64,000 nt of DNA from Rhodoblastus sp. (lineage in GTDB: Bacteria > Pseudomonadota > Alphaproteobacteria > Rhizobiales > Beijerinckiaceae): the NCBI GenBank assembly GCA_020442275.1, contig JAGRKN010000015.1, forward strand, positions 11,369-75,368. The letters run 5' to 3'. The notes below the pieces were generated by a model. It was not told the origin of the DNA, searched no databases, and was given only the letters and a program-made list of their open reading frames with translations. How positions within the stretch are numbered: the stretch's first letter is position 1; each line of letters starts with the position of its first letter. Both the position numbers and the translations under genes were made by a program. Below are positions 3,006-53,369 of this stretch, piece by piece.

Positions 3006-4124
3006 TCAGAGCCTCAAGGGCATCAAAATGTAGAGTGCGAAAGTGTTCGCGCGGTCCTGGATGATCGCGGGCGATCCGGCGTCGTTGAAGAGGATCAGGA
3101 GATCGTCGCCGTCGATGTTGTCGGCGATGTCGATGAGGTAGCGGGCATTGAAGCCGACATCGAGCGGCTCAGCGTCGTATTCGGCGTCCAATTGTTCCTT
3201 GGCGGTGCCGTGGTCCGGGCTCGTGACGGAAAAAGCGATATGATCGGTTGAAAGGTAGAGCGCGAGGGCCCGGCCGCGCTCGGTCGATATGGTGGAGACG
3301 CGGTCGACCGTGCGGCGGAACTCGTCGCGGGAGACGATGAGGCGCTTGTGATTGTCACGCGGGATGACCCGGGCGTAGTCCGGGAACGTGCCGTCAATGA
3401 GCTTCGAGGTCAGGATGACCGGGCCAATGGTGAGGCGGATCTTGGCCGAGGAAAGCTCGATCTGGACCTCGGCATTGTCGTCCTCGAGGAGCTTGAGCGT
3501 TTCGATCGCGGCTTTGCGAGGAAAGATCGAGGGCGACATGCCGGCGATGCCGGCGGGGCCAGGGACTTGGACCCGAGCAAGCCGGTGACCGTCGGTCGCG
3601 ACAGCGCGCAGGACGGACTGACCGTCATCTTCGGTAGGATGGAGGAAGATGCCGTTGAGATAGTAACGCGTCTCGTCGGACGCCATTGCGAACTGGGTCT
3701 TTTCGATGAGGGTCTTGAGGTGGCTGGCTGGCATCGAAAAGCGCGTCGGCATGTCGCCGGCCGCGATGTCCGGGAAGTCTGCGGCCGGCAGGCACTGAAG
3801 GGTGAAGCGCGAGCGTCCGGATTTGAGGGTCAGCGGCCCGTCCTTGGAGGTGGCGTCGAGCGAGACGAGCGCGCCGTCGGGCAGCTTCCGGACGATCTCG
3901 TGCAGCGTGTGGGCCGGAAGTGTGGTTGCGCCAGGCTGTGCGACATCGCAGGCGATCGTCTCGCTCATCTTTATGTCGAGGTCGGTTGCGCACATGCGCA
4001 ACGTCGCGCCGTCGGCCTCCAGCAGGACGTTGCTGAGAACCGGAATGGTATTGCGGCGCTCGACGACGCGATGCACGTGCATCAGGGCCTTGAGGAACAG
4101 GGCGCGTTCGACTGTGATTTTCAT
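3006..4124 (-). CDS. dnaN: DNA polymerase III beta subunit (sliding clamp)
   Basis: 372 aa. N-terminus MKITVERALFLKAL..VERRNTIPVLSNVLLEADG, then ETRYYLNGIF, ATDGHRLA, LIDGTFPDY, and the C-terminal MPLRL-type end typical of DnaN. Confidence 0.93.
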   Translation of the reverse strand: MKITVERALFLKALMHVHRVVERRNTIPVLSNVLLEADGATLRMCATDLDIKMSETIACDVAQPGATTLPAHTLHEIVRKLPDGALVSLDATSKDGPLTLKSGRSRFTLQCLPAADFPDIAAGDMPTRFSMPASHLKTLIEKTQFAMASDETRYYLNGIFLHPTEDDGQSVLRAVATDGHRLARVQVPGPAGIAGMSPSIFPRKAAIETLKLLEDDNAEVQIELSSAKIRLTIGPVILTSKLIDGTFPDYARVIPRDNHKRLIVSRDEFRRTVDRVSTISTERGRALALYLSTDHIAFSVTSPDHGTAKEQLDAEYDAEPLDVGFNARYLIDIADNIDGDDLLILFNDAGSPAIIQDRANTFALYILMPLRL

Positions 4125-11945: not shown

Positions 11946-12217
11946 GCGAGGACTCCGGTTGGATTTTGTGTGTTATGACGGATAAATCTGGCGCGGACGG
12001 AAAATCCGTGCGGGAAAGGGATGGCGATCATCGTGGACCGCGTGTTCTGGTGCAAGTGGGCGGGCCGGATCGTAGGGAAAACCGGCGGGCGGCATTTGCG
12101 GGGTTCGGAAAGTGGGATGCCGAAATGCCGGTGGAAGAAGATGAAAAGGCTGTCGGTGGACGGAATGACGAGGGATCGGGTATTGTGGTGGGCCGCTCGA
12201 ACGGAAGAACGGAGCTC

Positions 12218-13159
12218 ATGACGGATCGACGGAATTTCTTGGGAGGTCTTGCGGCCGCCAGCTGTCTTGCGCTGGCGGGCTGCGGGACCGAGTACGTCGA
12301 CTTTTCCAATCCGCAGAGCATCGGAAGTTCGGCCGGGGCGATCGCGAAGCGGCTGGAGGCCGAGAAGGCGGGGCGCGGCGTGATGTTTGCGCGGGCGCTC
12401 TATCGAGCGGCGACGCCGGTCGGCTGGCGCGCGCCGGCCGACGACTTTGACCCGAAGGACGTCTTGCGGCTCGTGACGGACCGAGGCGCCGAGCCAGAAT
12501 TGCTGGGGCCGGATTTTTGTCAGGCGGTCATGGCTGGCGCCGCGCGGCTCGGCGGGGCTGACGTGAAGACGATTTCGTCGATCTATTGCGCAGACGATGG
12601 CGCAGCGCTCGGCCTGCAATGGGATTGGGCAAAAGGCTTCGGTGAACGCATCAAGCGGCGGATTGCGACGCTCGCGTTCGACGAGCAGCGGCGCAAGGGG
12701 ATCATCGAGCGCGTGACGCCGCGCAAGGCCGGGTATCGTTGGACGTCGGGCAGCCGGCGCGTGCCGGTGGTCGACGTCGAGATGTTCAATCCGATCGACC
12801 GGCCGCTGACCGGCATCGAATTCGCGGTCGATCTCATCGACCCGGGCGGCCAGGTCGTGGCGTCGGCGGTGATGCCGTTCAGTCCGACAGTCGCTTTGCA
12901 GCCGGGGGTGTTCGGGCAGTACGCGGTCGATGTGGGCCAATACAAAGGCTTCAACGATCCGGCCTATCGGGATCTGCGCGATCCCGTGCGCGTATCGATG
13001 AAGGTGCGCGACATATTCGTCGACGACCACCAGTCGGTGCTGCAGGCCAGGGACGATTCTCGCAACGACGACGCGCGACGCATTGCGATCGGGCGGCTCA
13101 TCTCGGAGATAGTGGATGCGAGGAACAATCTCGCCAAATATCGCGCTGCTTTTGGCTAG
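12218..13159 (+). CDS. Tat-signal lipoprotein, function unknown
   Basis: Internal ATG at 12218 gives MTDRRNFLGGLAAASCLALAGC (twin-arginine motif plus lipobox LAGC). The longer listed ORF (11966) has a junk-like N-terminus. Confidence 0.65.
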   Translation: MTDRRNFLGGLAAASCLALAGCGTEYVDFSNPQSIGSSAGAIAKRLEAEKAGRGVMFARALYRAATPVGWRAPADDFDPKDVLRLVTDRGAEPELLGPDFCQAVMAGAARLGGADVKTISSIYCADDGAALGLQWDWAKGFGERIKRRIATLAFDEQRRKGIIERVTPRKAGYRWTSGSRRVPVVDVEMFNPIDRPLTGIEFAVDLIDPGGQVVASAVMPFSPTVALQPGVFGQYAVDVGQYKGFNDPAYRDLRDPVRVSMKVRDIFVDDHQSVLQARDDSRNDDARRIAIGRLISEIVDARNNLAKYRAAFG

Positions 13160-13931
13160 TGTCGTCGTCGCTGGAGCCGCCGGCGCGGCCGATTACGGCG
13201 CGCCTGGCGTGTTCGACAAGGCGTGGTTCGAACAGCTGAACGAGGCGGCCGGGTCGCCGACTGACAAGCTCGTGAAGGCCTATGCCGCAATGAAGGGGCC
13301 GGGCGGCGGTAAGGTCGTGCAGGAGGACGGATGCGGCTGTGCCGTCGACGCGAGCGGCCGCATCGCCGATCCGATCAGCTGTGCCCCGGTGTTTCGCAGT
13401 GGGCGCGAGGAACTCGCGCGCGCGGTGGCGGTCGAGATTGTTCCGCCGTCGAGCTGGGCTTCGGGGCTTGCGTGTTATTCGGCGGGGGCGCCGTCGTGTC
13501 GCGGTGTGAAGGGTGCCCCGGTGGTCGGCGAATCGTGCTGCGAGATGGCCGACCGGAGCTATGCGAAAATCCGCAATGACGCGAATTTGTATGTGCTGAT
13601 CGCAGCGCCGCTCGCCGAGCAGCTCGGCGGATATTCCTTCGGAGTGACGCGGTCGGGCGAAAAGCTCAGCGCATCGTGTCGCATCGAGATCGACCGCGAG
13701 CGGCGTGTCTGGTCGTTGGGCGCGCGCTCGGAAGGGTTTGCGGCGCGCGCCTGGTTGTATGCCACCCGGCACTATGGCGCGCGTTCGCCGGAGCCGATTG
13801 GCGCATTGTTGCGGATGTCGGCCGATCAGCCGCCGGGGCCTGGCGAGGTCGCCCGCGCCAAGGCGATCGGGCTTGTACAGAACGGCCGCGGGCAGGATGT
13901 GACCATCGAAGCGGCGGAGGGAAGGAAGTGA
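13116..13931 (+). CDS. Secreted hypothetical protein (271 aa)
   Basis: N-terminal signal peptide IALLLASVVVAGAAGAAD. Several Cys residues. Overlaps the upstream gene by 44 nt. Confidence 0.55.
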   Translation: MRGTISPNIALLLASVVVAGAAGAADYGAPGVFDKAWFEQLNEAAGSPTDKLVKAYAAMKGPGGGKVVQEDGCGCAVDASGRIADPISCAPVFRSGREELARAVAVEIVPPSSWASGLACYSAGAPSCRGVKGAPVVGESCCEMADRSYAKIRNDANLYVLIAAPLAEQLGGYSFGVTRSGEKLSASCRIEIDRERRVWSLGARSEGFAARAWLYATRHYGARSPEPIGALLRMSADQPPGPGEVARAKAIGLVQNGRGQDVTIEAAEGRK

Positions 13932-14578
13932 TGACGGACGCAACGGGACCGCAAGAGACGCAAGTCGTAGCCGGATTGTCGGATGACGACGCCAGGGCGC
14001 GTCCGGCCGGTAATCGCCGGCCGAAGCCCGTAATCGTCGAGAAGGAAGAAGCGGCGGATGGGTTGGATGTGACCGCCGCTGAATATGAGGCGTCGGTTGG
14101 TGAAGGCGCGGCGGGCTCAGCGGAAGAGGGTGCAACCACGGAAGCGAATTCAGAGGCGGGCGAGGAAGGTGAGCCTGTCGGCGCCGATCCTGGCGTCGTC
14201 GATCAGCAAGAGATTGGGACGAACGAAACAGTGGAGGCGGTCGCGGAAGCGGAGGGCGTCGATTTTGAGGACGTTCGTACGGATTACTTCGATCCGGAAT
14301 TCACGACGCCGAAAGAAATATCGACAATGGCGTGCAATTTGGGAACGCAGATTTATCTGTCGCGATGGCAGAAGAAGCAGGACACGCCGATCCGGGCTGG
14401 TGTTGAGGATGCTGCGAAGATGATTACGTTTGCGTTCGACCATGAGCTGATCATGGAAACCTTCGACCGCGCGACGGAAGCGGCGAACGCCAATCGGAAT
14501 TTCCTCGAGACGTCGCGGCGCCGGATGAAGGCGCACATGGATGCAGCGGCGGAACAGCAGCAGGGTGGAGAGCAATGA
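13931..14578 (+). CDS. Acidic hypothetical protein (215 aa)
   Basis: ATG at 13931 shares one base with the upstream TGA (TGATG). The N-terminal half is E/D/A-rich. The longer listed ORF (13676) overlaps the previous gene. Confidence 0.5.
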   Translation: MTDATGPQETQVVAGLSDDDARARPAGNRRPKPVIVEKEEAADGLDVTAAEYEASVGEGAAGSAEEGATTEANSEAGEEGEPVGADPGVVDQQEIGTNETVEAVAEAEGVDFEDVRTDYFDPEFTTPKEISTMACNLGTQIYLSRWQKKQDTPIRAGVEDAAKMITFAFDHELIMETFDRATEAANANRNFLETSRRRMKAHMDAAAEQQQGGEQ

Positions 14579-15330
14579 AACGCATCGGAGTGATCGCAGC
14601 GGCGGTGTTGGCCGCCTTCATTGGTAGCGCCGCGGCGGCGGAGCCGCTGGCGACGAGGCCTGAAATGACGCCGCAGAGCGCGTCGGAAGAACGTCCGGCC
14701 GAGATTTTTGTCCGGGCGCTGCGGGCGATCGAGGCGCAGGAGGAGGCGTCGGTGCGCCTGCACGATGCGCTGCTCGAGTATTTTGCGATCCGGCTGACGG
14801 AAATGCCGCATGCGGTGTGGATCGGCGATACCAAGGCGGAGAGGACGGCGTTCGTCTTCGTCGATTACAGCGCGCCTTTTGCGTTCCGGTTTTTGCACGC
14901 GGTCGAGCAGTTCGCGGCGAAGGCGAAGGTGCGCTGCATCGTGCTGCCGGGGAGCATCGATACCGATCAGCAGCCGGTCGCCCGTTTCGTGGCCGGCGTG
15001 ACCGTGATCGGCGAGTTTCCGGCGCTGTTCGAGAAAGGCGTGTCGCTCGGCGACAAGTTCGATGGCGATGTCGTGAGGCTGGTTCCCGAGCAAAAGGGCA
15101 TGAAGGCGACCGAGGCCGGCGGAAAGGCCGAGGCGCTCGATCAGGCGGCGCTGGCCCGCCTGGTGCTTCTGGGTCTCGGCGCCAAGCATCCGACGCTATT
15201 GCGGCTGGACGGCAAGAGCTATGCGGGGTCGCTGGTCGATCCCGAGGAAATGGCCGCATTCTTCTCACAGCGTTCGTCCGCCGCCGATGCTTCGGTGAAG
15301 GCGTTCGAGGAGAAGATCGGCGGCCGCTAG
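14575..15330 (+). CDS. Secreted hypothetical protein (251 aa)
   Basis: ATGA overlap with the upstream gene. Signal peptide MKRIGVIAAAVLAAFIGSAAAAEP. Confidence 0.6.
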   Translation: MKRIGVIAAAVLAAFIGSAAAAEPLATRPEMTPQSASEERPAEIFVRALRAIEAQEEASVRLHDALLEYFAIRLTEMPHAVWIGDTKAERTAFVFVDYSAPFAFRFLHAVEQFAAKAKVRCIVLPGSIDTDQQPVARFVAGVTVIGEFPALFEKGVSLGDKFDGDVVRLVPEQKGMKATEAGGKAEALDQAALARLVLLGLGAKHPTLLRLDGKSYAGSLVDPEEMAAFFSQRSSAADASVKAFEEKIGGR

Positions 15331-15656
15331 ATCGCGATTTGCGTCACGCCGGGGATCTGGACGATCTCGTCGGTGAAAGTTTCGTCGGGCTGGAACTTTC
15401 GGAGGTTGAGGGCGATCTCGACCTCCGAGTTGTAGCTCGCCATTTCCAGCACGATGACGAGGCGGCGATTGTCGCCGATGCCGGACCGGCCGTAGGCGAG
15501 GTAGGCGGCGCGGATGGCGTCGAGCGCTGTGACGCCGGCAGCCTCCTGGACGTGGATGCGGACGGGGTGGCCGGGTGATGCCGGGACGACAACGGCTCGT
15601 TGCGCGAGGCGCGGCGCTTCGTCGACAAGGGCGAGATCGAAATCGAGATTGCTCAT
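15327..15656 (-). CDS. Hypothetical protein (109 aa) translationally coupled to dnaE
   Basis: ATG at 15656 (MSNLDFDLALV...) overlaps the dnaE stop as ATGA. Its stop overlaps the stop of the convergent plus-strand gene (CTAG). Confidence 0.55.
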   Translation of the reverse strand: MSNLDFDLALVDEAPRLAQRAVVVPASPGHPVRIHVQEAAGVTALDAIRAAYLAYGRSGIGDNRRLVIVLEMASYNSEVEIALNLRKFQPDETFTDEIVQIPGVTQIAI

Positions 15657-18600
15657 GCGACCTTCGCTTTCGCGCGCGCGAGCTTGCGCGCGCTGTAGGC
15701 GGCGGCCGGCGTCCATTCGAGAATGGTGCGCTGTGCGCCGATGCGCACGACGTAGACGCCTGGGCCGTCACGGGTGGGTGGAGGCGGCAGGAGGCCGCCT
15801 TTCATGACGGCGCGCAGGGTCGTTTGTCCGTCATCGAGGACGACGGCGATGCGCGAATCCTGCTCCTCGATCTGGGCGAAGACGGCGAGCGCTTCGGTCG
15901 AGACCGTCTTGGACGCCTTTCCGGCGGCGGCCAGCGTATGGACGCGGACGTTGTCGACCAGATGGGCGAATTGATCCGTCGGATGGCGCGTGAGCGAGAA
16001 GCCGTAGGCCGAGGCCTCCATCGCCGCCATTTCGGCGCGGGTAAGCGGCGTGATGCCGCGGACGTGCGGCGAGGCGGCGAAGAGCTGGGGCCCGGAAGGC
16101 GCGTCGCCGCTCTCCAGCTCGGTGAGATAGAGCTGGCGCGAGGTTTCTGGAGGGATGGTCGCATCGAGGGTGTCGAAAGCGCCGGCGCGGATGAGAAGCT
16201 CCATCGTGTGCTTCTTGACGACGGCCGACATCCGCTTGCGGAACTCGACGAAATCGAAAAAGGGGCCGTTGGCTTCGCGCTCGAGACGGATGGCGCGCGC
16301 GACGTCGTGACCGACGCCTTTGATACCGGAGAGCGCGTAGACGATGGAGTTGGCTTCGCCGTTGGTTTCGAGCGTGATGTCGAAGAGTTCGCCTGAAAGA
16401 TTGACGTCAGCCGGTGTGATCGGGACGCCGAGGCGACGGATTTCGGCGACGTCGATTTCGAGGCGGCCGGTGGAATTGGCGTCCTGGTCCATGCAGGCCG
16501 CCATGTAGGCCTGATAGTGATGGGCCTTGAGCCAGGCCGTGACCGAGGTGATGCGGGCATAGGCCGCCGCGTGCGAGCGGTTGAAGCCGTAACCGGCGAA
16601 TTTCGCGACCATGGCGAAGATGTCGCGCGCCTGTGCTTCCGTCATGCGCGGTTCGAGCGTAGCGTTGGCGACGCAGCCTTCGATGAAGGACTTTTCGAGC
16701 GCGGCCATTTCTTCCGGGATCTTTTTGCCCATGGCGCGGCGCAGGAGATCGGCTTCCGCCAGGCTGTAGCCGGCCAGGCGACGGGCCAGATCCATGATCT
16801 GTTCCTGGTAGATCGGAATCCCGTAGGTCGAATGGAGAACCGCGGCCAGCGCCGGATGCGGGTAAGCGATCGGCGCATAGCCTTTCTTGCGGGCGGCGTA
16901 GATGGGGATCTGGTCCATCGGGCCGGGGCGATAGAGCGAGATCAGCGCGACGATATCTTCGAAGCTCGAGATGCCGACGCGCGAGATCGCCCGCTTCATG
17001 CCGGTCGATTCCAGCTGGAAGACGTTGATGGTCCAGCCCTGGCGGAGCATGTCGAAGACGGTTGCGTCTTCGTAGGGCGTCTTCCACGGATCGAAGATTG
17101 CTCCGGTCTTGGCGGCCAGTTCGCGCGCACGGTCGATGATGGTCAGGGTCTTGAGGCCGAGGAGGTCGAACTTCAGCAGGCCCTGGTTGTCGATCGACTT
17201 CATGTCGAACTGGGTTGCCGGGATGCCGGCCGGCGCGCCTTCGTTGTCGGAGAGCGGCGTGATCGATTCCAGCGGATCGTCGGCGAGCACGACGCCGGCG
17301 GGATGGCGCGTCTTGTGAGCGACGACGCCTTCGATCTTGATGGCCGACTGCATTGCCTCGGCGCATTCGACGTCGGAGCCGAGCGCTTCGCGCAGCGCCG
17401 GGCTTTCGGTCAGCGCGGCCTCGAGCGAGTCGACCTTGTCCGGGATGAGGTCGGCGATGCGCTTTTGCTGTCCGGGCGTCAGGCCGAGCGCGCGGCCGGC
17501 GGTGCGCCAGGCGGCCTTCGGCTGCAGGGTTTGCCAGGCGCCGATCTGGGCTACGTGGTCGAGCCCGTAGCGATCGACGATATAGGCGACGACGCGGTCG
17601 CGGCGGCGCTCGCAGAAGTCGATGTCGAAGTCGGGCGGCGAGACGCGCGAGGGGTTGATGAAGCGCTCGAAGAAGAGGCCGAGCTCGATCGGATCGAGAT
17701 CGGTAATGCCGAGGCACCATGCGATGAGCGATCCCGCGCCGGAGCCGCGGCCAGGGCCGACCGGAATGCCGGAGGCTTTTGCAGCATTGACGAAGTCGGC
17801 GACGATCAGGAAGTAGCCGGCAAAGCCGAGCTTGATGATGATCTCGATTTCCATCGCGTAGCGCGCGTCATAGGCGGCGCGGTCGCTGATGCCGTGTTCG
17901 GAAAGACGCTTTTCGAGCCCTTGCGCCGAGACGGTCCGCAGGGTCGCCTTCTCGTCGACGCCCTTGAATGTCGGCATCGACGGCTTGTTCTGGGTGAGCG
18001 CAAAATTGCAGCGGGTGGCGAGCGCGATGGCGTTGTCGGTCGCTCCGGGCAGATCGGCGTAGAGCTCGCGGATTTCTCCGTCGGACAGGTAGTGGGCGAC
18101 CGGCCAGCGCGGCTTCTGGTCTTCGCCGAGAATGTTGATGATGTCGGTGTCGACGGATTCCGCGACGACCGGGATCGGCGCGGCGATCGAGGGGATCGAG
18201 AGCGATGCGGCCTTGCGCGCGACGGCGCGCCCCTGGAGGCCGCCGGCCGAGCGTGCGATGGCGAAGGCGAGCCGATCGGCGGGCAGCCCGGCGATGAGGG
18301 CGGCGATCGCTTCGTGATCGGTGGCAGCCCATGCGGTCGCGGCTGGGCAGCCGGCGTCGATCGAGATGAACAGGGGCGCCGCGGCAAGGGCGGCGATGAG
18401 CTGGGCAAGGTTGAATTGCTTCAGGCGCAGCTCGTTCGAGATGCGGCAGAGCGCCGGCCAGCCCGGGGCGTCCTCGATGTGGACCGCGATTTCGAGGTCG
18501 TCGAGGACGAGACGCGTCCCCAGAACGGCTTTGAGGCCCTTTTTCTTGGCCTCGAGCGATAGTTCGTAGGCGCCGGCGAGGGCCTGGTCGTCGCAGAGCG

Positions 18601-18706
18601 AGGCGACGCCCGACGTTTTGGCGAGCGCGACGATCTTCTTCGGGCTGAGCAGGGAGCGGCCGGTCGTGTAATGACTGGCGGCGTAGAGGAGCGGGATCGC
18701 GCTCAT
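15653..18706 (-). CDS. dnaE: C-family DNA polymerase (Pol III alpha-like), short form with degenerate PHP domain
   Basis: 1017 aa from ATG 18706 (MSAIPLLYAASHYTTG), overlapping the dnaQ stop as ATGA. Hallmarks: PPDFDIDF, GLLKFDLLGLKTLT, FNRSHAAAYA, HhH IKGVGHDVARAI, QLF clamp-binding-like motif at 16079-16087, and an OB fold at the C-terminus. There is no tau-binding tail. The listed 1351-aa ORF N-terminus is R/P-rich junk overlapping dnaQ. Confidence 0.9.
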   Translation of the reverse strand: MSAIPLLYAASHYTTGRSLLSPKKIVALAKTSGVASLCDDQALAGAYELSLEAKKKGLKAVLGTRLVLDDLEIAVHIEDAPGWPALCRISNELRLKQFNLAQLIAALAAAPLFISIDAGCPAATAWAATDHEAIAALIAGLPADRLAFAIARSAGGLQGRAVARKAASLSIPSIAAPIPVVAESVDTDIINILGEDQKPRWPVAHYLSDGEIRELYADLPGATDNAIALATRCNFALTQNKPSMPTFKGVDEKATLRTVSAQGLEKRLSEHGISDRAAYDARYAMEIEIIIKLGFAGYFLIVADFVNAAKASGIPVGPGRGSGAGSLIAWCLGITDLDPIELGLFFERFINPSRVSPPDFDIDFCERRRDRVVAYIVDRYGLDHVAQIGAWQTLQPKAAWRTAGRALGLTPGQQKRIADLIPDKVDSLEAALTESPALREALGSDVECAEAMQSAIKIEGVVAHKTRHPAGVVLADDPLESITPLSDNEGAPAGIPATQFDMKSIDNQGLLKFDLLGLKTLTIIDRARELAAKTGAIFDPWKTPYEDATVFDMLRQGWTINVFQLESTGMKRAISRVGISSFEDIVALISLYRPGPMDQIPIYAARKKGYAPIAYPHPALAAVLHSTYGIPIYQEQIMDLARRLAGYSLAEADLLRRAMGKKIPEEMAALEKSFIEGCVANATLEPRMTEAQARDIFAMVAKFAGYGFNRSHAAAYARITSVTAWLKAHHYQAYMAACMDQDANSTGRLEIDVAEIRRLGVPITPADVNLSGELFDITLETNGEANSIVYALSGIKGVGHDVARAIRLEREANGPFFDFVEFRKRMSAVVKKHTMELLIRAGAFDTLDATIPPETSRQLYLTELESGDAPSGPQLFAASPHVRGITPLTRAEMAAMEASAYGFSLTRHPTDQFAHLVDNVRVHTLAAAGKASKTVSTEALAVFAQIEEQDSRIAVVLDDGQTTLRAVMKGGLLPPPPTRDGPGVYVVRIGAQRTILEWTPAAAYSARKLARAKAKVA

Positions 18707-19350
18707 GGGGCGGGTTCCCTGTGCTGCGGCGCGAGGAGGGGAATCTGGATCGGGGTGCGGTCGGTTTCCTCGGTTTGCGCGAGGAGCGCATCGAGGAAAT
18801 CGCCCTGCGTGCGCGGCGTGTCGAGCATGACGCGCATGCGGCAATAGGCGGTGGCGAGCAACTCGCAGTCGACGAGAGCCTCGTGGTAGGTCGAGCGCGC
18901 GTCGGTCGAAATGTTGAGACGGCGGCATACGGCGTCGAGCGAGACGGGTTTGCCTGGCCATAGCCGCTTGGCGATGTTGATCGAATCCTCGACCGGAACG
19001 GCGAGCGTGATGTCGGGAAAGCCGACGCGCAGGCATTCGGCGGACAGGAAGCGCATGTCGAATGGCGCGTTGTGCGCGATGAGGCGGGAATCGCCGATGA
19101 ATTCGGCAATCGGAGGCCAAGCGTCCTGGAATAGGGGCGCGGTCGCGAGATCGTCGTCCTTGATGCCGTGGACGAGGAACGAGGACCATTGGACAGGGAC
19201 GCCCTCGGGATTGACGCGTCGTTTGATCGAACGGCCCGTCGGTCGCAGATCGATGATCTCGACGGCGGCTATCTCGATGACGCGATGGCCGGCGTCGGGA
19301 TCGAGGCCGGTCGTTTCGGTGTCGATGACGCAGGCGCGGGTTGGCGACAT
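18703..19350 (-). CDS. dnaQ: DnaQ-like 3'-5' proofreading exonuclease (Pol III epsilon family)
   Basis: Exo I VIDTETTGLD, Exo II LIAHNAPFDMRFL, Exo III YHEALVDCELL. ATG 19350 is preferred over the listed TTG 19377, which lies inside the terminator U-run. Confidence 0.88.
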   Translation of the reverse strand: MSPTRACVIDTETTGLDPDAGHRVIEIAAVEIIDLRPTGRSIKRRVNPEGVPVQWSSFLVHGIKDDDLATAPLFQDAWPPIAEFIGDSRLIAHNAPFDMRFLSAECLRVGFPDITLAVPVEDSINIAKRLWPGKPVSLDAVCRRLNISTDARSTYHEALVDCELLATAYCRMRVMLDTPRTQGDFLDALLAQTEETDRTPIQIPLLAPQHREPAP

Positions 19351-19439: not shown

Positions 19440-19859
19440 TCAGTTCTTCTGGGACGGCTTGTCGTTGCCGAGCGAGTAGAAGGGGCTCTTGGCCGGCGAG
19501 CCGTCGGACTTCTTGTCCTTGTAGAAGCCGACGACATTGAAGGTGGCGCGTGCGCCGTTGTAGTCGTGCTCGAAGCTGAAGCGGATCGCGCCCTTGCCGA
19601 TCTGGCCGAAGAAGCGGGTCTTGAACATCGCGCCGCTGAACGCGGGCTCGGACGAGGTCTGGCCGTTTTCGCGGCGGGCGGCCGAGAAACGGTAGTACTC
19701 GGAATCATTCTTCGACTTCTGCGGCGTCGGATCGATCGTCATGGCGTATTCGACGTTGTCGATCTTGATCGTGCCGGAGATGGCGTTGTTGTCGCCGGTG
19801 AACAGGCTGCCGACGATCTTCGCGTCGAGGGCGACCGGCGGCTTGGCGTATTCTGTCAT
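19440..19859 (-). CDS. Hypothetical protein (139 aa), possibly DUF736-like
   Basis: SGTIKIDNVEYAMTIDPTPQKSKNDSEYYRFSA loosely resembles the DUF736 pattern (TGTI.TL....v.i.P........PD.R) common on alphaproteobacterial conjugative elements. The family call is tentative. Confidence 0.6.
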   Translation of the reverse strand: MTEYAKPPVALDAKIVGSLFTGDNNAISGTIKIDNVEYAMTIDPTPQKSKNDSEYYRFSAARRENGQTSSEPAFSGAMFKTRFFGQIGKGAIRFSFEHDYNGARATFNVVGFYKDKKSDGSPAKSPFYSLGNDKPSQKN

Positions 19860-19908: not shown

Positions 19909-22251
19909 TCAGGCGGCCCGTTTGGTCTGCTGCAGGACGTCGGAGACGATCTGCGTCAGAAGGATCGGGAGTTCTGACGTGTCACGGATATTTCTCCAGC
20001 CGGGAATCTTCATCGTCGGGGCGTTCGGACCAATGCCGATGCCGACGAGGTAGACGCCGGATCTGATTATTCCGTTGGCGGCGCTGAGCGTGCGTTTTCG
20101 ATCGCTGGCTTCTCCGTCCGTGATGAGGAAAAGGATTTTACGCTTCTCCGAGCGCAAGCGAAGCGCCTTTTGCGCTTCGAGCAAACCGAAATGGGTCGGG
20201 GTGCCGCCGTTTTCGCCGTCGGCCGGAATTGCGCCGATGGCGCTCTTGAGAGCGCTGGGGGCGTCGGTGAACCGCTTGATCCATTTGATCAGGTGGGAGG
20301 CTGGCGCGCTGGTGTAGGTCAGCGCCGCCGTGTGCACGTCGCGGTCGGTTCCGATCGCAGAAGCGAGCGCTGCTGTCGCTTCGGCGAGATGATCGAGGCG
20401 GGTTTTTCCGGAGCGATCTTTTTCGCGCATCGAGGCCGAGAGGTCGAGGCAGAAGACGACGGATGCCGCGCGATCCTTGCGGGCGTCGCGACGGGAATAG
20501 ATGTCGGACGACCCGGTCGAGATGCCGATCAGGTTGCTGAGATCGAGATCGCCATCCTCGAGCTGGAAGCGTTCGCGGCGGTAGGTTTCCGACGTGAGCA
20601 GCTTGCGCGCGGCCTGGGCGACGCGCGCGGCCGATGCGCCGCCCTTTTGGAGCAGGCGATGGTAATTGGGCATGTCGCGATCGTCGCTGATGCGGATCTC
20701 GATGCGCGACAGGTCGTGTTCGTCGGCGCCGGCGCCGGTCGCCTTGACGATGGCTGCGATCACGTCGCTGACGTCGAGCGCAGTTGTCGGAATGGCGTCG
20801 CTATCAGCAGTCGGCGAGAGCGGCGCGGCGCCGCCCGAACTGGCGCCTTGCTGCGACGGGCTGCCGGAACCGGCGGTCACGCCGCCGCCGGCCTGGCCGT
20901 GCGATGCCTGCTGCTGCGGCTGCTGGCCCTGTGGACCGGCGGATTGTGATGTGCCGCCGGGCGCCGCGCCGCTTTGCGGCGGCGAGCCCGAGCTGGAGGA
21001 ACCAGGCTGGGCGTCATGATCGGCGCCTTGAGCAAGTTTCGACGGATCGCCGGTATTGTCCTGCTGGGGCGCCGGCGCGTGCTGATCGGAAGCGCCGGCG
21101 CCTTGGCCGTCGGCCGTATTGTTGTTCTTCTGGTCGTTGGATTGGCCGCCGGAGCCGCCTTGAGGTTGGTTCTGGTCCGACGGAGAGGTTCCGTCAGCGC
21201 CGGTGGGCGGGTTGGCGTCGGATTTGGTGTCCTTGGGGTCGCCAGATGGGTCGGAGTTCGTGGCGTCGGGTTTGGTTTGGGGCTGAGCGCCCGACGAAGG
21301 GTCGGCCTGATCGTCCGTCTTGCTTGAATTGGAGTCGGATCGATCGGAGCCGTCGTTGCCCTTGCCAGCGCCGGGCTGCGACGAAGGCTGATTCTGCTGG
21401 GGTGAGTTCTGCGGCTGCTGTTGCTGCTGGGCCTGCTGCTGCGGAGGCGGCGGCGGGGGATCCTTCTTGAAATATTTGTTGGCGCATTCGACAGCGATGT
21501 CGAAAGCGAGCTCCATGACCTCTCGATGGGAGCCGAGCTGAAGAATGGCTGGCCAATAGGCGTCGAGCATCTGACGCCCGTCCGGGCAGAGCGCGCTGGC
21601 GCGGTCGAGATTGGCTTTGGCGATTGCGGCGCAGGGGTAGGCGTTGTCGATGCAGCCTGCCCAGGTGATCATGGCGCCGAGCGCGTTCGGCATGGGCATT
21701 TCGGTGACGCCGGCCAGCTCGGCGGCCTGGCGCTCATTCACGTGGAGGCGCGTTTTGGCGATGTTCAGGAACGAGCCGGGATAAGCGCGCTTGATCGCGC
21801 GCTCGATGCGCCAGTCCTCGATGGTGTTGTCGATGTACTGCGAAGTGCGCCAGATCCAGTATTCCTTTTCGTCGATGCCGAGCGCTGCACGCTGTTCGGG
21901 CGTGTCGATCTTTTCTCTGGAGTTCGGCGCGCCAAGGATCTTGCCGAGGACGGCGGAGAGTTTGCGCTTGGCGAACGTCCAGACGTAGGGGATCTCGCTG
22001 TAGAGGACGTGCGCGCATTCGTGGTTGGAGTAGCCACGCAGAACGAGCGCCTTGGATTCTGGATATTGCTCGGTCGAGGAAAGCTCGGGGATGCGGATCG
22101 TGGGTACAGCGGCCGGCGTCGTGTAGGCGACATAGGCCTGCGCGCCGGCGAATTCGACCGGAATCTTGGCGCCGGTGAGCGCGGAAATCGTGCTTTCGAT
22201 TTCTCCGCGCAGAATGTACCCCGGAATGGTTTTCTCGATGGGCGACGACAT
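19909..22251 (-). CDS. CobT-like VWA protein with N-terminal HExxH motif and long disordered linker
   Basis: 780 aa from ATG 22251 (MSSPIEKTIPG). HECAH at residues 77-81 (22009-22023). P/Q/S/G/D-rich low-complexity region at residues about 263-485. C-terminal VWA with MIDAS DLSAS (603-607) and LFLITDGEASD. The listed 994-aa ORF N-terminus overlaps the upstream gene and looks non-coding. Confidence 0.8.
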   Translation of the reverse strand: MSSPIEKTIPGYILRGEIESTISALTGAKIPVEFAGAQAYVAYTTPAAVPTIRIPELSSTEQYPESKALVLRGYSNHECAHVLYSEIPYVWTFAKRKLSAVLGKILGAPNSREKIDTPEQRAALGIDEKEYWIWRTSQYIDNTIEDWRIERAIKRAYPGSFLNIAKTRLHVNERQAAELAGVTEMPMPNALGAMITWAGCIDNAYPCAAIAKANLDRASALCPDGRQMLDAYWPAILQLGSHREVMELAFDIAVECANKYFKKDPPPPPPQQQAQQQQQPQNSPQQNQPSSQPGAGKGNDGSDRSDSNSSKTDDQADPSSGAQPQTKPDATNSDPSGDPKDTKSDANPPTGADGTSPSDQNQPQGGSGGQSNDQKNNNTADGQGAGASDQHAPAPQQDNTGDPSKLAQGADHDAQPGSSSSGSPPQSGAAPGGTSQSAGPQGQQPQQQASHGQAGGGVTAGSGSPSQQGASSGGAAPLSPTADSDAIPTTALDVSDVIAAIVKATGAGADEHDLSRIEIRISDDRDMPNYHRLLQKGGASAARVAQAARKLLTSETYRRERFQLEDGDLDLSNLIGISTGSSDIYSRRDARKDRAASVVFCLDLSASMREKDRSGKTRLDHLAEATAALASAIGTDRDVHTAALTYTSAPASHLIKWIKRFTDAPSALKSAIGAIPADGENGGTPTHFGLLEAQKALRLRSEKRKILFLITDGEASDRKRTLSAANGIIRSGVYLVGIGIGPNAPTMKIPGWRNIRDTSELPILLTQIVSDVLQQTKRAA
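21409..21459 (-). repeat. Trinucleotide (CCG)n-(CAG)n coding tract
   Basis: The plus strand reads ctgcggctgctgttgctgctgggcctgctgctgcggaggcggcggcggggg and encodes PPPPPPQQQAQQQQQPQ inside the CobT-like linker. Confidence 0.6.
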
Positions 22252-22280
22252 CGTCGCCGCCCCGGCGGTCGATGCGCGGG

Positions 22281-23897
22281 TCACTTCCAGTCGTCTCCGT
22301 AGATTTGCCTGCCGAATTCCTCCGCCGCGCTGACGTCGGAGGCGAGCGGGACGCGGTTGATGAGGATCGTGCGGATCGCTTCGACCTCCGCGGCCTTGCG
22401 TTCGAGCGGGTCGCGCGGATTGAGGCCTTCGATCCAGTTGGCGACCGCCGTGAGCTGACGATAGGAGCATGTGGTCGAAAGGCGGTTGGAGACGAAGGCG
22501 CTGCGCATCAGGTTGGCGTAGCTGATGCAGCGCTGGGCGCTGTCGCGCGGCAGGCCGGGGCAGTCGGCCAGGATGGTGGCGAGCTCCTGGTCCTCGGGCA
22601 TGTATTTGCAGTCGATCCAGAGCGGAAAGCGGTCGCGCGTGGCTTCCGACATTTCCTGCCGCAGGCCGTAGGGGTTCTCGCCGTCGTCGCGACCCTTGGT
22701 GTTTGCGGTCGCGAGAATCGCGTGATCGGGATGCGGCGCGATGAACCGGCCGCCGTCGTCGAGAATGGTGATGCCTTTGCGTTCGTAGGCCTGGTGGGCG
22801 ACGTACTGCAGGTCGGGGTCGGCGCGGTCGATTTCGTCCATGTCGATGATGGACGGCATCGAGATCGCCTTGGTGAGCAGGCCATCGAACCATTGCGTTT
22901 CCGAGCCGCGCTCGGTCGTGATCTGCTTGAAGCCGCCGATCATGTCGCGCTTGCGCATTTCGCCATGGACGGGGATGCGGAAGAAGGGGCGGCCGAGGTG
23001 CGCGGCCAGGGCTTCAGCCATGGTCGTCTTGCCGCAGCCGGTCGGCCCGACGAGAACGGAGTTCAGACCCTTGGCGATGCCCCATAGCGCCTGACGCAGC
23101 GAGACCGGATCGAAAGCGTAATTGGGGTTCGCGATCGGCACGTAGGGGTGGGGCGCATCCCAGGTGTAGACAGGGATGTCGAAGGTGAAGCGATGGGCGT
23201 GTTCCGGCGGGATTTTCGTCGCGAACACGGAAGCGGCCGGCAGCATGCGCATCGTGCCCGACGGCAGCGGCCCCTCGGCCGGAATGGGCGTGACCGCCTT
23301 GCGCGCGTGCATGCCGCCCTTGGCGAGAATCTTCTGGGCGTTGTCGAGGGATTCGATGATCTGGAAGACGCTGCGCACGGAGCCGTTGGTCGCCTGTGCG
23401 ACGATGCGATCGGCGGTCGACAGCAGGGAGCGGTCGATTTTCGGGATCGCGAGCGGCGTGTAGGTCGGCGTGGCTGTGTCGTCGGCCGCAGGCGCCGCCG
23501 CCGCGGATGCGTCGCCGCCAGCGGGCGCGACGGGCGGTTCGAGATCGCGCAGGAGGTCGCGCATCTCGGGATCCTTCAGCTTCGTCATTTCTTGGACGAA
23601 GCTGCGAAGGTCGGCATTGGTTGTGAGCTTCTGGATGCGCTCGTTCTGGGTGAGCGCCGGATCGGTGAAGTCGGGAACATACGGCGTGATCTCGGCGAGG
23701 GTCGCCGTCAGGGCTCCGGCGATCGCGTCGGTCCACAGGGCCGGATCCTGACTGGCGTCGGCCATCAGGCTCGTAAACAGCGCGCGGTGCGGATGATCGG
23801 CGGCTGTGACGTCGAAGCGCGATGCGCCGGCAGGCAGGAGCTTCTTGATGAGATAGAGCGCGATCATGCGGAGCGCGATCTGGCTGGATTTCGTCAT
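22281..23897 (-). CDS. CobS-like AAA+ ATPase (AAA_5/MoxR-related) with roughly 220-aa N-terminal extension
   Basis: 538 aa from ATG 23897 (MTKSSQIALRM). The CobS-like pre-ATPase segment is FDIPVYTWDAPHPYVPIANPNYAFDPVSL. Walker A VGPTGCGKTT, Walker B IIDMDEIDRADPD, then PHPDHAILATANTKGRDDGENPYGLRQEMSEATRDRF. Confidence 0.85.
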   Translation of the reverse strand: MTKSSQIALRMIALYLIKKLLPAGASRFDVTAADHPHRALFTSLMADASQDPALWTDAIAGALTATLAEITPYVPDFTDPALTQNERIQKLTTNADLRSFVQEMTKLKDPEMRDLLRDLEPPVAPAGGDASAAAAPAADDTATPTYTPLAIPKIDRSLLSTADRIVAQATNGSVRSVFQIIESLDNAQKILAKGGMHARKAVTPIPAEGPLPSGTMRMLPAASVFATKIPPEHAHRFTFDIPVYTWDAPHPYVPIANPNYAFDPVSLRQALWGIAKGLNSVLVGPTGCGKTTMAEALAAHLGRPFFRIPVHGEMRKRDMIGGFKQITTERGSETQWFDGLLTKAISMPSIIDMDEIDRADPDLQYVAHQAYERKGITILDDGGRFIAPHPDHAILATANTKGRDDGENPYGLRQEMSEATRDRFPLWIDCKYMPEDQELATILADCPGLPRDSAQRCISYANLMRSAFVSNRLSTTCSYRQLTAVANWIEGLNPRDPLERKAAEVEAIRTILINRVPLASDVSAAEEFGRQIYGDDWK

Positions 23898-24000
23898 TTT
23901 CGGGGGCTCATCGGAGGAAGGAATGCGGAAGGATGGAAGCAATGGGAAGGCGGGGCGGGCGCGGTCGCGACCACCGAACAACGTCGGAACTCCGTGGAGA

Positions 24001-25587
24001 TCAGCGGGAAAGGCTGGCGCGCTCGCGCGGTTGGGAAATCGCCTGTTCGCCGGAGAATATCTTCAGCATGTTCTGCGACTCCGCGAAGCTGCGCTTCACG
24101 ATCTCGTGGTGATCGGAACCCTTCGGTCGCGATTCGAGCGTCGTGAATACGTCGAAGCGCTTGGCGACGGCTTGACGGCCGTATTCGATGATTTCGTCCG
24201 GCGTGAAGGTCTTCGGCGATATCGGCTTGACGAGGCGCGTTGTGGCTTTGTTGCGGCCAAAGCAGATTTCATTCTTCTGCAGCAGGAGAAAGCGTTTCGA
24301 GTTGCGCGGGCGCACGGCGAAGACGGTGCGCAGCCCATCGTGCAGGCCGTAGATCTTGATGTTGTGAGGCTGGCCTGCGGAGAGGTCTTTCCAGGGGCGA
24401 TATTTGGTCGTCGGAGTTTCCGGACCCTTGGCGATGAAATTCTCGATCTTGCGGTACTTGTCCATGCTGCCGTGCATGTAGGTCGATGCGCCCATATCGA
24501 TCACGGTGTAGGCCTGCTTGTCGAAGCCGGCTTCGGTGTGGGCGCGCGCGCCGCGGCCGTTGATCTGGATCCACTCGGAACGTGAAGTCGTTTCTTTCAG
24601 GCAAAGTAGACTTTGCGTGCGCGTCACATCGACGCCCTCCGTCAACATGTTGACGCTGCTCAGCACCTGGACGCGTCCGGCGCGATAGTCGGCGAAAGCC
24701 TTTTCGCGGAGGGCCGGCGAGAGGTCGGAATGGACGACTGCGGCCTTGATGCCGGCCTCTTGGAAGGCCGCGCACAAGAGATCGGCGTCCTTGATCGTGT
24801 TGGTGTAGGCGAAGGTTGGAACGGGCGTGCCGTTGTTCGCTTTCAGCCAGGCGCGGATCGAGGTGTCGAAGAAATCGTGGGGACGACTTGTGGCGAGCGC
24901 CTTCTGGATGCCGACCGCTGGTACGGACGGGTCGTTGGGATCGAGGATCTCGTCGACGGTTTCGGCGACGGTCTTGCCGTTCGAAAGCCGGTATTCGGGG
25001 CAGGTCACTTTTGGGGGCACGATTGCGCCGCAGCCGGCAGCCTCTTCGTAAGTGACATGAAAACGCTCGCCGTTGCAGAGCGCTGGATGGAGTTTGGCCT
25101 TGTCGGAGCGCTCGAGCGTCGCGCTCGTGCCCATGACGACGGCATTGGGATTGATCTTGAGGACGGCGTTGATGATTGCTGAATGCTGTGCCTCTTCGTC
25201 GGCCGTCGCGTGGTGGCATTCGTCGATCCATACGGCGTCGCGGTGGCCGATCGCATGACGATTGGCGTACAACGTCTTGGTTATTCCGTAAGCGGCCTGG
25301 CCGGACGGGTCGAATTCTCCGTTGATCGAGAGACTGGCGTCTTTGACGCCAAGTGAATTGGCCCTGGCTATGTTCTGCGCGCCGATTGCCTGGCGATCCT
25401 GGACGACGAGGACACGGAAATCGGGTCTTTCGGCGATGAGACGCTGAAAGACGTCGATGGCCATGTTGGTTTTCCCGAAGCCGGTTGGCGCGGAAATGAC
25501 GATGTTTTTGCCGGAAAGGAGGGCGGCGGCGGCAGCCGTCGTCACCTGTTCCTGCAGTTCAGTGCGGCGGGCTAAATCGACAGCCAT
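24001..25587 (-). CDS. SF2 helicase (ResIII/DEAD-like N-lobe plus Helicase_C)
   Basis: Motif I SAPTGFGKT, motif II VWIDECHH, motif III-like GTSATL, and C-lobe VLSSVNMLTEGVDV...INGRGAR. Confidence 0.85.
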   Translation of the reverse strand: MAVDLARRTELQEQVTTAAAAALLSGKNIVISAPTGFGKTNMAIDVFQRLIAERPDFRVLVVQDRQAIGAQNIARANSLGVKDASLSINGEFDPSGQAAYGITKTLYANRHAIGHRDAVWIDECHHATADEEAQHSAIINAVLKINPNAVVMGTSATLERSDKAKLHPALCNGERFHVTYEEAAGCGAIVPPKVTCPEYRLSNGKTVAETVDEILDPNDPSVPAVGIQKALATSRPHDFFDTSIRAWLKANNGTPVPTFAYTNTIKDADLLCAAFQEAGIKAAVVHSDLSPALREKAFADYRAGRVQVLSSVNMLTEGVDVTRTQSLLCLKETTSRSEWIQINGRGARAHTEAGFDKQAYTVIDMGASTYMHGSMDKYRKIENFIAKGPETPTTKYRPWKDLSAGQPHNIKIYGLHDGLRTVFAVRPRNSKRFLLLQKNEICFGRNKATTRLVKPISPKTFTPDEIIEYGRQAVAKRFDVFTTLESRPKGSDHHEIVKRSFAESQNMLKIFSGEQAISQPRERASLSR

Positions 25588-34242: not shown

Positions 34243-34854
34243 TCAGGCGGAAAATGCGATGCGGAGGTCGTCCTCGATCTGCTTCACGATGGCGTCGTCG
34301 TTGCGATGGAGGGCGAAGGCTGTGTGGAACGTCGGAAAAACCGGAGCGGCCGACAGGGAAGTCGACAGGATCTTCCCGCGGTTCTGCTTGATCCGGTCCT
34401 GGCCGGTGAGAGCCCAGAGCGCGATCGAGCCCATGGCGACGATGCGCTTGGGCGCGGTCGATTTCACGAGGTCACGGAAAAACGCGATGTCGGCGGCGTG
34501 CGAGGTATGGAGCGAGCGGCCGTGATAGGGCGAGACGCCTTGGGCCGCCTGCGACGGGTCGTCGGTGAAGAAGGTCGAGATGTCGTTGGAGCGGCGCTTG
34601 CCGTCTGCTGTTGCGGTCCAGGTCGGCTGGAAGCGGAAGACATTGGCGATGAGCGTGGCGTCGCGCTCGACGTTGAGCGTGCGGAGCGCCTGCGTCAGCA
34701 GAAGGCCTGCAGGTCCGACGAAGGGCTTGCCGAGGATCGCCTCGGTCGCGCCAGGCGCCTCGCCAACGATAAGGAATCCATTGAACGGAAGTTTCGGGCG
34801 CGCCGGCTCGACCGGGCCGGCGATTGCGCCCTGGGGCAAAGCGGAAGTGGTCAT
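34243..34854 (-). CDS. Uracil-DNA glycosylase superfamily protein (family 4-like, no Cys cluster)
   Basis: Motif A FLIVGEAPGATEAILGKPFVGPAG, then ANVFRFQP and a late His (FPTFHTAF). The 203-aa protein has no cysteine at all, so it cannot carry the 4Fe-4S cluster of classical family 4. Confidence 0.8.
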   Translation of the reverse strand: MTTSALPQGAIAGPVEPARPKLPFNGFLIVGEAPGATEAILGKPFVGPAGLLLTQALRTLNVERDATLIANVFRFQPTWTATADGKRRSNDISTFFTDDPSQAAQGVSPYHGRSLHTSHAADIAFFRDLVKSTAPKRIVAMGSIALWALTGQDRIKQNRGKILSTSLSAAPVFPTFHTAFALHRNDDAIVKQIEDDLRIAFSA

Positions 34855-51156: not shown

Positions 51157-52122
51157 CTACCGTAGCTTGACGAGAGCGTGGCTCTGTGAGTCGAGAACGG
51201 TAGCGATGAACTGCGCCGGCGTGACGCCGCGTTCGTCGAGATTGCAGAGATCGTCGCCGAGTTGCGGAGAAAACGCGGAAGGGATGCGGAGCACCTCGAC
51301 GCTGGTTGCGGGTGAATAATCCGCGATGGAGGAGGCGTAGGCGAGGCCCGGGCCGTCCATGTCGGTGGCCACGACGACGCGGCGGCCGAGCAGCGGCGAG
51401 AGGTCGCTGCGCAAGACGGAGCTCCAAGCGCCGGTGGTCGTGCACCAGAAGCCGCGACCGAACCATTTCTTGGCGGTTTCGACGCTCTTTTCGCCCTCGA
51501 GCATCAGGATGTCGGGGGCGATGTCTTGCAGATGGAGATCGTAGAGAATCCGGGGAGTGGCGACAGCCTTCTGTTCCCAGGACTTTTTGCCATTCTCTTC
51601 CCAGACGCTCATCGGGATGAAGGTTTTTTCCGTCGGATCGTCGAGGCTGTCGAAACGGATGTTCCACATGAGGATTTCACCGGAGGCCGAGCGCCAGGCC
51701 CAGCGACCGGCTTCCTTCCAGCGTCCTGGGGGCGGACGGATCTGCCAGGCCTGTGGTGGATGCGGGAGACCGCAGCCGGCCCAGGTCATGCGGGGAGCTT
51801 CCGGCTCGTGGCGAGCGGACGAGGCGCTCGCGGCGGCAGACGATTTGGACGAGAGTCGCGATGCGTCCGACGAAACGTCGAAGCGTTTTGGCGTGGCGTC
51901 GTATTTGTTCTTGAGGGCGTCGATGACCTGCGTCTGGGAGCAGGCGGCATAGCAGTGAAAGACGACGGTCTTGTACCCATCCGCCACGAGCAGCGACGGA
52001 TTGTTCTTGTCGTCGTGGGCCGGGCAGAAGGTTTTGAACGTCGGCGTGGCGCGGCCGTGGATTTGGCATTGGCGGCCGCGCCCGAGCAGGCGGGCAAGGC
52101 CCGCCGCGTCGTAATCAGTCAT
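51157..52122 (-). CDS. Primase-like protein: CHC2-type zinc-binding N-terminus plus Toprim domain
   Basis: FCPAHDDKNNPSLLV...FHCYAACS (Zn-binding pattern). The C-terminal Toprim has LMLEGEKS ... VVVATDMDGPG. Confidence 0.7.
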   Translation of the reverse strand: MTDYDAAGLARLLGRGRQCQIHGRATPTFKTFCPAHDDKNNPSLLVADGYKTVVFHCYAACSQTQVIDALKNKYDATPKRFDVSSDASRLSSKSSAAASASSARHEPEAPRMTWAGCGLPHPPQAWQIRPPPGRWKEAGRWAWRSASGEILMWNIRFDSLDDPTEKTFIPMSVWEENGKKSWEQKAVATPRILYDLHLQDIAPDILMLEGEKSVETAKKWFGRGFWCTTTGAWSSVLRSDLSPLLGRRVVVATDMDGPGLAYASSIADYSPATSVEVLRIPSAFSPQLGDDLCNLDERGVTPAQFIATVLDSQSHALVKLR

Positions 52123-53358: not shown

Positions 53359-53369
53359 GGCGTTGCCTC

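Follow-up and report, generated by a model that had tools for sequence, protein, structure and literature searches.

Gene Organisation of the dnaQ-dnaE-orf109 Cassette

The window analysed in this study is the whole stretch of 64,000 nucleotides (positions 1–64000) taken from contig JAGRKN010000015.1 of Rhodoblastus sp., and coordinates refer to it unless a locus label is given. Loci fetched for comparison carry L-numbers (L001, L005 and so on) and homologous proteins carry P-numbers (P0007 and so on). On its minus strand lies a cassette of three genes, dnaQ, dnaE and orf109, which encode a proofreading exonuclease, a shortened alpha subunit of DNA polymerase III (Pol III) and a small protein of 109 amino acids (aa). 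Profile comparisons and a predicted structure support homology of the orf109 product to the C-terminal domain (CTD) of alpha (E. coli residues ~1079–1160), and the tau-binding tail missing from the polymerase is probably encoded by this small gene.

The dnaQ gene (18703..19350, minus strand; ATG at 19350, TGA at 18705–18703) encodes an epsilon-type DEDDh 3'-5' exonuclease of 215 aa. It is followed by dnaE (15653..18706, minus strand; ATG at 18706, TGA at 15655–15653), which encodes a DnaE1-derived Pol III alpha of 1017 aa ending after the OB region, and by orf109 (15327..15656, minus strand; ATG at 15656, TAG at 15329–15327). The stop codon of dnaQ and the start codon of dnaE share the sequence ATGA at 18706–18703, and the stop of dnaE and the start of orf109 share ATGA at 15656–15653. 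A QLF tripeptide (16079..16087, minus strand; aa 874–876 of DnaE) occupies the position of the internal beta-clamp-binding motif of DnaE1. These overlaps, the 1017-aa length and the QLF coordinates had been reported in a first-pass annotation of the sequence, and all proved correct on recheck. Six other minus-strand genes sampled from the window likewise have [AG]TGA at their stop codon, with an open reading frame (ORF) start listed there in at least four cases. A four-nucleotide overlap is routine in the window and hence no special mark of the cassette.

The small gene is under purifying selection, with dN/dS values of 0.17–0.27 against homologues of 80% and 61% identity, and is therefore a real gene.

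Class and Catalytic Core of the Polymerase

DnaE matched the Pfam families for the Pol3 core (PF07733, 1e-81), the fingers (PF17657, 1e-54) and HHH_6 (PF14579, 1e-19). The catalytic residues D359, D361 and D514 are kept and align with D401, D403 and D555 of the E. coli protein. By these sequence features, DnaE appears to be a catalytically competent alpha subunit of the DnaE1 type.

Among NCBIfam models, the DnaE1 model PRK05673 gave 798 bits, below its own cut-off of 1002, versus 450 bits for the DnaE2 model PRK05672. The best 120 homologues listed in a search of 5.8 billion proteins were full-length DnaE1s with 38–46% identity, apart from a few PHP-less relatives from mobile elements; the named homologues among those listed were alphaproteobacterial, mostly Sphingomonadales. 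A neighbour-joining tree was built on 955 alignment columns with 200 bootstraps, including three DnaE2 references from imuA-imuB cassettes (L020–L022). The window DnaE and five relatives formed one clade in 200/200 bootstraps, with the DnaEs of sphingomonad megaplasmids as its sister, and the DnaE2 set was separated from the window clade and the DnaE1 side in 200/200 bootstraps. According to this phylogeny, the window DnaE belongs to a DnaE1-derived clade of mobile elements and not to DnaE2/ImuC.

The gene neighbourhood was consistent with this placement. The genes upstream of dnaE are dnaQ, orf139 and those for a VWA protein and an AAA5 ATPase, with no imuA or imuB, whereas in the reference DnaE2 cassettes imuA/imuB lie directly upstream of the polymerase gene. 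No Y-family polymerase (ImuB-type) domain was found among the window ORFs scanned. The first-pass annotation had set the polymerase apart from ImuC/DnaE2 while naming a position inside ImuC, with imuAB nearby, as an outcome that would overturn its view; the polymerase instead fell on the DnaE1 side.

PHP Domain and C-Terminal End of DnaE

The N-terminus of DnaE reads MSAIPLLYAASHYTTGRS, and no Pfam PHP family matched the protein. To score the metal ligands of the PHP domain, DnaE was aligned with E. coli alpha and read at the nine sites given by Barros et al. 2013 (PMC3666897). None of the nine was kept (Y8, A10, R17, D40, R65, a gap, D117, I178 and V180), so the degenerate PHP domain described earlier withstood a proper alignment. 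The nearest chromosomal DnaE1s, mostly from Sphingomonadales where named, retained only 0–2 of the nine ligands, yet all of them had a Pfam PHP match. By this alignment, a decayed PHP domain is not distinctive of the cassette, though that of the window has diverged further than those of its relatives. Such a state is expected, since PHP ligand loss is known from published work to correlate with the presence of epsilon.

The QLF site aligned with the internal clamp motif QADMF of E. coli alpha (920–924) and with SGQxxLF of alphaproteobacterial DnaE1. Within the close family the LF is conserved, unlike the Q, which is M in P0007.

In alignment with E. coli alpha, the DnaE chain runs on for approximately 24 residues past the OB/CTD boundary (1078/1079 in E. 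coli) and then ends, domain limits being taken from PMC4703070; the OB region itself was placed by position only, with no profile recognition. A typical DnaE1 carries PHP, Pol3, (HhH)2, OB and CTD in one chain (Timinskas 2014, PMC3919608). The window protein departs from this architecture in that its CTD-like module is a separate ORF and in that it has no Pfam PHP match. The earlier claim that the cassette has no tau-binding tail thus stands for the DnaE chain, which stops near the OB/CTD boundary, but probably fails for the cassette as a whole, with the missing tail encoded by orf109.

Proofreading Exonuclease

DnaQ matched Pfam RNase_T (1.6e-28) and the NCBIfam model TIGR00573 with 104 bits, above its cut-off of 71.5. 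TIGR01406 scored 165.6, below its cut-off of 222.7, and the equivalog models were below their cut-offs. The DEDDh site is intact, with D10, E12, D98, H156 and D161 invariant in alignment with E. coli DnaQ. In place of the clamp-binding QTSMAF of E. coli epsilon, the window protein has Q-G-D-F-L and its relatives have QANFL, QSGSLF or QSELL; judging by its position, this peptide may function as a clamp motif. The C-terminal tail of DnaQ is about 40 aa long versus about 60 in E. coli, and beyond the clamp-motif site it could not be aligned, including the alpha-binding helix.

Relationship of orf109 to the Alpha C-Terminal Domain

No curated family matched orf109. The combined length of the DnaE and orf109 products (1017 + 109 = 1126 aa) is close to the 1147–1160 aa of DnaE1. 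When a profile of 12 small-ORF sequences was compared by hhalign with an alignment of 103 full-length DnaE1s, the single best match fell on columns 1097–1156 of 1170 (P = 2.5e-5, probability 75%). Column-shuffled controls (60 profiles) reached a maximum score of 26.2 versus 41.5 for the true profile, with none of the ten top-scoring shuffles placed at the C-terminus, and the reversed profile scored 15.6. The same C-terminal columns were recovered from subfamilies alone, both for the orf109 family (P = 6.8e-4) and for the L013 family (P = 2e-3). All nine small ORFs tested, drawn from three subfamilies, had a weak best match at positions 1076–1142 of 1156 in the DnaE1 hidden Markov model (HMM). 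Single-sequence hhalign runs with the last 85–95 aa of P0016, P0008 and the window DnaE gave signals too weak to inform.

A structure of residues 21–109 was predicted by AlphaFold2 from 12 sequences with a predicted local distance difference test score (pLDDT) of 89 and a predicted template modelling score (pTM) of 0.80. The model has the order beta-alpha-beta-beta-alpha-beta. Its top Foldseek match among 350,542 PDB chains was the Pol III alpha of Thermus (Taq), 2hpi, with a probability of 0.89, a template modelling (TM) score of 0.53 and a root-mean-square deviation of 3.3 Å over 75 columns. Chains of 4iqj ranked third and fifth, and E. coli alpha (5fkv) ranked 30th. A first model, built from six sequences (pLDDT 78), had given no meaningful fold match, with 2hpi at rank 16 only. 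The viral fold library BFVD contained no match to the orf109 model. For E. coli and Thermus, the CTD is established as the tau-binding domain (PMC4703070, PMC3919608).

The orf109 Family and Its Distant Branches

Word-indexed and exhaustive searches of 5.8 billion proteins yielded about 12 clusters of orf109 homologues. On every contig of sufficient length, the homologue overlaps the 3' end of a dnaE of the window clade, so that the linkage, whose absence elsewhere had been named as grounds for discarding the cassette, is general. The conserved order is DEAD helicase, AAA5, VWA, small ORF, dnaQ, dnaE, small ORF. Its last four members, small ORF-dnaQ-dnaE-small ORF, were found in this order in four divergent branches of the element family. 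The cassette described earlier is thus borne out as a conserved and tightly packed unit of three genes.

An exhaustive orf109 profile search of 1.84 billion representatives returned nothing beyond family members and three repetitive proteins; the latter were rejected as spurious, with 5–6 matched stretches each. No plasmid matched orf109 by tblastn. A four-sequence alignment of the product of orf139, the gene upstream of dnaQ, retrieved no related locus in 185,579 GTDB species genomes and a single 2-kb metagenome contig; a five-sequence alignment was too divergent to serve as a probe.

The first part of orf109 (15597–15656) encodes a variable N-terminal leader. Across the family it contains a conserved M-S-x-x-D-F-[DE]-[LI], absent from the shorter ORFs of L010 and L013, and from its sequence this peptide could be a short binding motif.

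In the distant L010 and L013 branches, ORFs of 84–90 aa were colinear with orf109 (P = 3.9e-3 and P = 3.6e-4, respectively). Elements of the window and L010 types combine a tail-less DnaE with the small ORF. The L013-type DnaE has 1092 aa, can be aligned with DnaE1 through to the C-terminus and is then followed by an ORF of 84 aa; by this alignment, it probably keeps its own CTD besides the small ORF. The DnaE of L012 (L012:8168-11839) has 1223 aa, 131 aa more than that of L013, and no separate small ORF precedes the same topoisomerase gene. Its last 95 aa matched the small-ORF profile (P = 0.0011), which makes L012 a probable fusion of the small-ORF module to DnaE. The C-terminus of this protein apparently contains two tandem CTD-like modules, the last one being orf109-like. 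The module is best seen as a CTD copy, fused or free, and in the window lineage as the sole CTD left.

Genetic Context in the Window

The G+C content is 59–67% across the window, and the majority of genes lie on the minus strand. The window encodes its own beta sliding clamp, DnaN (3006..4124, minus strand), with matches to all three Pfam DNA_pol3_beta domains (1e-33 to 8e-29); dnaN is also encoded in L001 and L005. The clamp motifs of DnaE and DnaQ probably have DnaN as their partner. With E. coli DnaX as the query, tblastn found no homologue of the clamp loader either in the window or in six related loci, and the description of the cassette as a self-contained polymerase core was to this extent overstated.

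Transfer genes in the window comprise those for a VirB11-like ATPase fragment, a TrbL/VirB6-like protein and a type IV coupling protein with a Hint/LAGLIDADG intein (59973–63359, minus strand). In the related element L001, inteins were found instead in the AAA5 ATPase and the class II ribonucleotide reductase (L001:834-3491, L001:13728-18017). Besides DnaN, replication and repair genes encode a Rad52/22-family annealing protein (52126–53400), a primase-like protein recognised by a PHROG match only (51157–52122), a uracil-DNA glycosylase family protein (34243–34854), all on the minus strand, and a class II ribonucleotide reductase (RNR). Helicases and topoisomerases are represented by topoisomerase III, two UvrD-like proteins, a RecD-like protein, a Strawberry-notch-type protein and a DEAD-box helicase. 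A ParB-like protein is also encoded, together with an AAA5 ATPase and its VWA partner. Owing to this combination of transfer with replication and repair genes, we assign the window to a large conjugative element that carries a replication and repair set of its own. Megablast of 20 kb gave no match against phages and only short RNR and dnaE stretches against plasmids; by these comparisons, the element is no catalogued phage or plasmid replicon.

The genes for the DEAD-box helicase, the AAA5 (MoxR/CbbQ-like) ATPase and the VWA protein (19909–25587, minus strand) precede the polymerase genes in all relatives. The VWA protein has a long low-complexity stretch rich in Q, P, S and G. Between this block and dnaQ lies orf139 (19440..19859, minus strand), a small gene of 139 aa, syntenic in L001, L005, L010, L013 and L025–27. 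Its position 5' of dnaQ was kept in 4/5 branches of the element family examined (124–144 aa; the exception is L012). Its product matched no Pfam, NCBIfam or PHROG family and is possibly a further part of the polymerase module.

Four plus-strand genes (11966–15330) converge on orf109, the last one overlapping its stop by 4 nucleotides. None of the four matches a known family, and the N-termini of three resemble signal peptides or Tat/lipobox signals; L001, L005 and L014 all retain the block. Among distant relatives, Tad/Flp-pilus-type genes (RcpC, secretin, CpaD, CpaF-like ATPase, TadB/C-like) adjoin the dnaE-topoisomerase block (L012:15949-21827, L013:16356-23279, L027:9127-12288), and two sphingomonad megaplasmids with dnaQ and dnaE (L008, L009) carry type II secretion system (T2SS)/type IV pilus-type ATPase and F-family genes nearby.

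The GC skew ranged from +0.13 to +0.25 in every 2-kb bin of the window (1–64000), with a mostly negative AT skew. Its sign was unchanged over the plus-strand genes (about 12–15.3 kb and 25.7–27.3 kb), so the skew seems tied to the DNA strand itself, for instance through replication in one direction or recurrent exposure as a single strand, rather than to codon usage.

Comparison with Known Polymerase Systems

The window cassette resembles the E. coli-type Pol III core in its C-family polymerase with catalytic aspartates, (HhH)2 (Pfam HHH_6) and an internal clamp-motif site, and in the pairing of an inactive PHP domain with a separate DEDDh epsilon that bears a clamp-motif-like peptide after the exonuclease domain. 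In contrast to that core (alpha-epsilon-theta), the window alpha stops at the OB region, and the CTD-like module is a separate 109-aa protein. The cassette is also without theta, its PHP domain lies below the Pfam threshold, and the C-terminal tail of its epsilon is much shorter. Furthermore, its genes are located on a conjugative element with dnaN and without dnaX.

DnaE2/ImuC polymerases are similar in being about 1000–1100 aa long and often plasmid-borne, with an inactive PHP domain and no CTD in the polymerase chain. The window DnaE differs from them in lying outside the DnaE2 clade, in having dnaQ and not imuA/imuB as its neighbour, and in being followed by a CTD-like gene.

The dnaQ-nucleotide kinase-dnaE modules of Sphingomonadales megaplasmids (Erythrobacter aureus NZ_CP031358, Sphingosinicella NZ_CP035502) also encode DnaE1-like polymerases on mobile replicons with a nearby dnaQ. 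T2SS/Tad-like genes are found close to them, and a VWA gene on the Sphingosinicella plasmid only. Unlike the window cassette, these modules have a full-length DnaE of 1160–1174 aa (as expected with the CTD in the chain), a kinase gene between dnaQ and dnaE, and no small CTD-like ORF afterwards.

The split dnaE of cyanobacteria (DnaE-n/DnaE-c, with a split intein) likewise yields Pol III alpha in two pieces. There, the break falls within the polymerase core, the two genes are widely separated, and protein trans-splicing joins their products. In the window, the genes overlap, alpha is interrupted at the OB/CTD boundary and the junction has no intein.

Proposed Mechanism and Alternative Explanations

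We consider it probable, though well short of certain, that the cassette is the polymerase module of a large alphaproteobacterial conjugative element whose alpha subunit is split, the tail being supplied in trans by orf109. Alpha would be made as two pieces, one with the decayed PHP domain, polymerase, HhH and OB regions, and the other being the CTD. The ligand-free PHP domain would probably serve as a mere scaffold and as the docking site for epsilon, and DnaQ would be an active DEDDh proofreader with its clamp-motif-like peptide. The ATGA overlap may allow orf109 to be translated by reinitiation, roughly in step with DnaE. As a detached copy of the alpha CTD, orf109 would bind tau by analogy with cellular DnaE1, and its most likely role would be to link the alpha-epsilon-beta set of the element to a clamp-loader or replisome partner. 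This partner is presumably host tau, as no dnaX was seen on the element.

Several observations weigh against this account. The homology to the CTD is remote (~19% identity), and no single test was significant database-wide: HMM-to-sequence scores on DnaE1 C-termini were at most 12 bits, and the Foldseek E-values were 0.18 and above, which is non-significant, with the matched part of 2hpi not given by the tool. The small-ORF profile scored 21 bits (E = 0.002) against the carboxysome shell proteins CcmK1/2 (PDB sequences), higher than against DnaE1 C-termini. The module has diverged far from host-type CTDs, which fits poorly with binding of host tau. In addition, the L013-type DnaE appears to have its own CTD and yet carries the small ORF; fission alone therefore does not explain the small ORF, and its role may be other than tail replacement.

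The CcmK1/2 match, which covers 15330–15596, was followed up for a bacterial microcompartment (BMC) shell protein identity (PF00936). This identity was rejected: comparisons with EutM/EutK gave P = 0.011–0.65 and at most 5.5 bits, no family member had a Pfam BMC match, and no BMC structure appeared in the Foldseek top 50. The match was judged a local sequence coincidence, and it shows that sequence evidence at such distances is fragile.

If the resemblance to the CTD were spurious, orf109 would be an unrelated small alpha/beta protein, BMC-like or other, travelling in the operon. The sub-threshold status of all CTD evidence in database terms and the CcmK1/2 score speak for this, and beta-alpha-beta-beta-alpha-beta is a common arrangement in small domains. 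Nevertheless, we regard it as quite unlikely: three independent lines agree, namely the profile matches of two subfamilies, the top structural match, and a position and length that complement the truncated DnaE, while the BMC signal is absent from EutM/EutK, Pfam BMC and Foldseek. The proposal of the first-pass annotation, a third subunit that is theta-like or new in kind, has no relation to alpha and is bound to either epsilon or alpha within a core of three proteins, would account for the tight, co-oriented and conserved linkage with dnaQ-dnaE and for the lack of a curated family match. Theta is a three-helix bundle, unlike the fold predicted for orf109, and no theta/HOT structure was among the 50 best rows of either PDB fold search. 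With profile and fold evidence both pointing to the alpha CTD, the only consistent relative recovered, the proposal of an unrelated subunit, theta-like or novel, appears highly improbable.

Two further explanations accept the relationship to alpha and differ in how the module is used. Acting as a decoy or competitor, a free CTD-like protein could bind host tau and displace host Pol III alpha, interfering with the host rather than completing the enzyme of the element, and the tail-less polymerase would then have no need of tau in its work, which might be the synthesis of the complementary strand after transfer. Such a role would suit a separate polypeptide that is free to diffuse, an element on which no dnaX was seen, and an L013-type DnaE whose probable retention of a CTD implies a role beyond tail replacement. 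However, the probable fusion in L012 favours a module that acts in cis with the polymerase, the strict 4-nucleotide overlap between dnaE and the small gene in the orf109 family points to matched synthesis of the two proteins, and the module is strongly diverged from host CTDs; on this evidence, we find the decoy explanation unlikely. A programmed −1 frameshift near the end of dnaE could instead fuse the two frames and give a short and a full-length alpha, like the gamma/tau products of dnaX. The small gene does lie in the −1 frame of dnaE, the 37 codons that precede it in this frame in the window contain no stop, and a fused form seems to occur naturally in L012. In relatives, however, the open stretch upstream is only 9–15 codons long and not conserved in sequence. 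No slippery heptamer was seen by inspection, and relatives preserve the ATG, with the M-S that opens the protein, precisely at the overlap. We therefore give a frameshift hardly any credence, and a split alpha with its tail encoded separately by orf109 is the interpretation we retain.

Rarity and Biological Significance

In published surveys of C-family polymerases (PMC3919608, PMC12926913), the CTD is reported either to form part of the chain, to be missing or to be replaced. Our literature search returned no report of a stand-alone or separately encoded, translationally linked alpha CTD, and no paper on the element family of the window. This family is rare, with about 12 protein clusters and no species-genome match to the orf139 probe.

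For surveys of C-family polymerases, the cassette suggests a caution: where a DnaE appears truncated after the OB region, a downstream CTD-like ORF should be looked for before the polymerase is called tau-independent. If orf109 binds tau, the cassette would amount to a naturally dissected alpha-tau link. It could then also be used to study how large conjugative elements that encode a DnaE, DnaQ and DnaN of their own either join the replisome of the host or rival it. We further suggest, as a tentative and on balance doubtful idea, that orf109 either plugs the tail-less polymerase into the clamp-loader/helicase hub of the host or evicts the host polymerase from it. If true, either would mean that a conjugative element can seize the replisome of its host by a route not described before.

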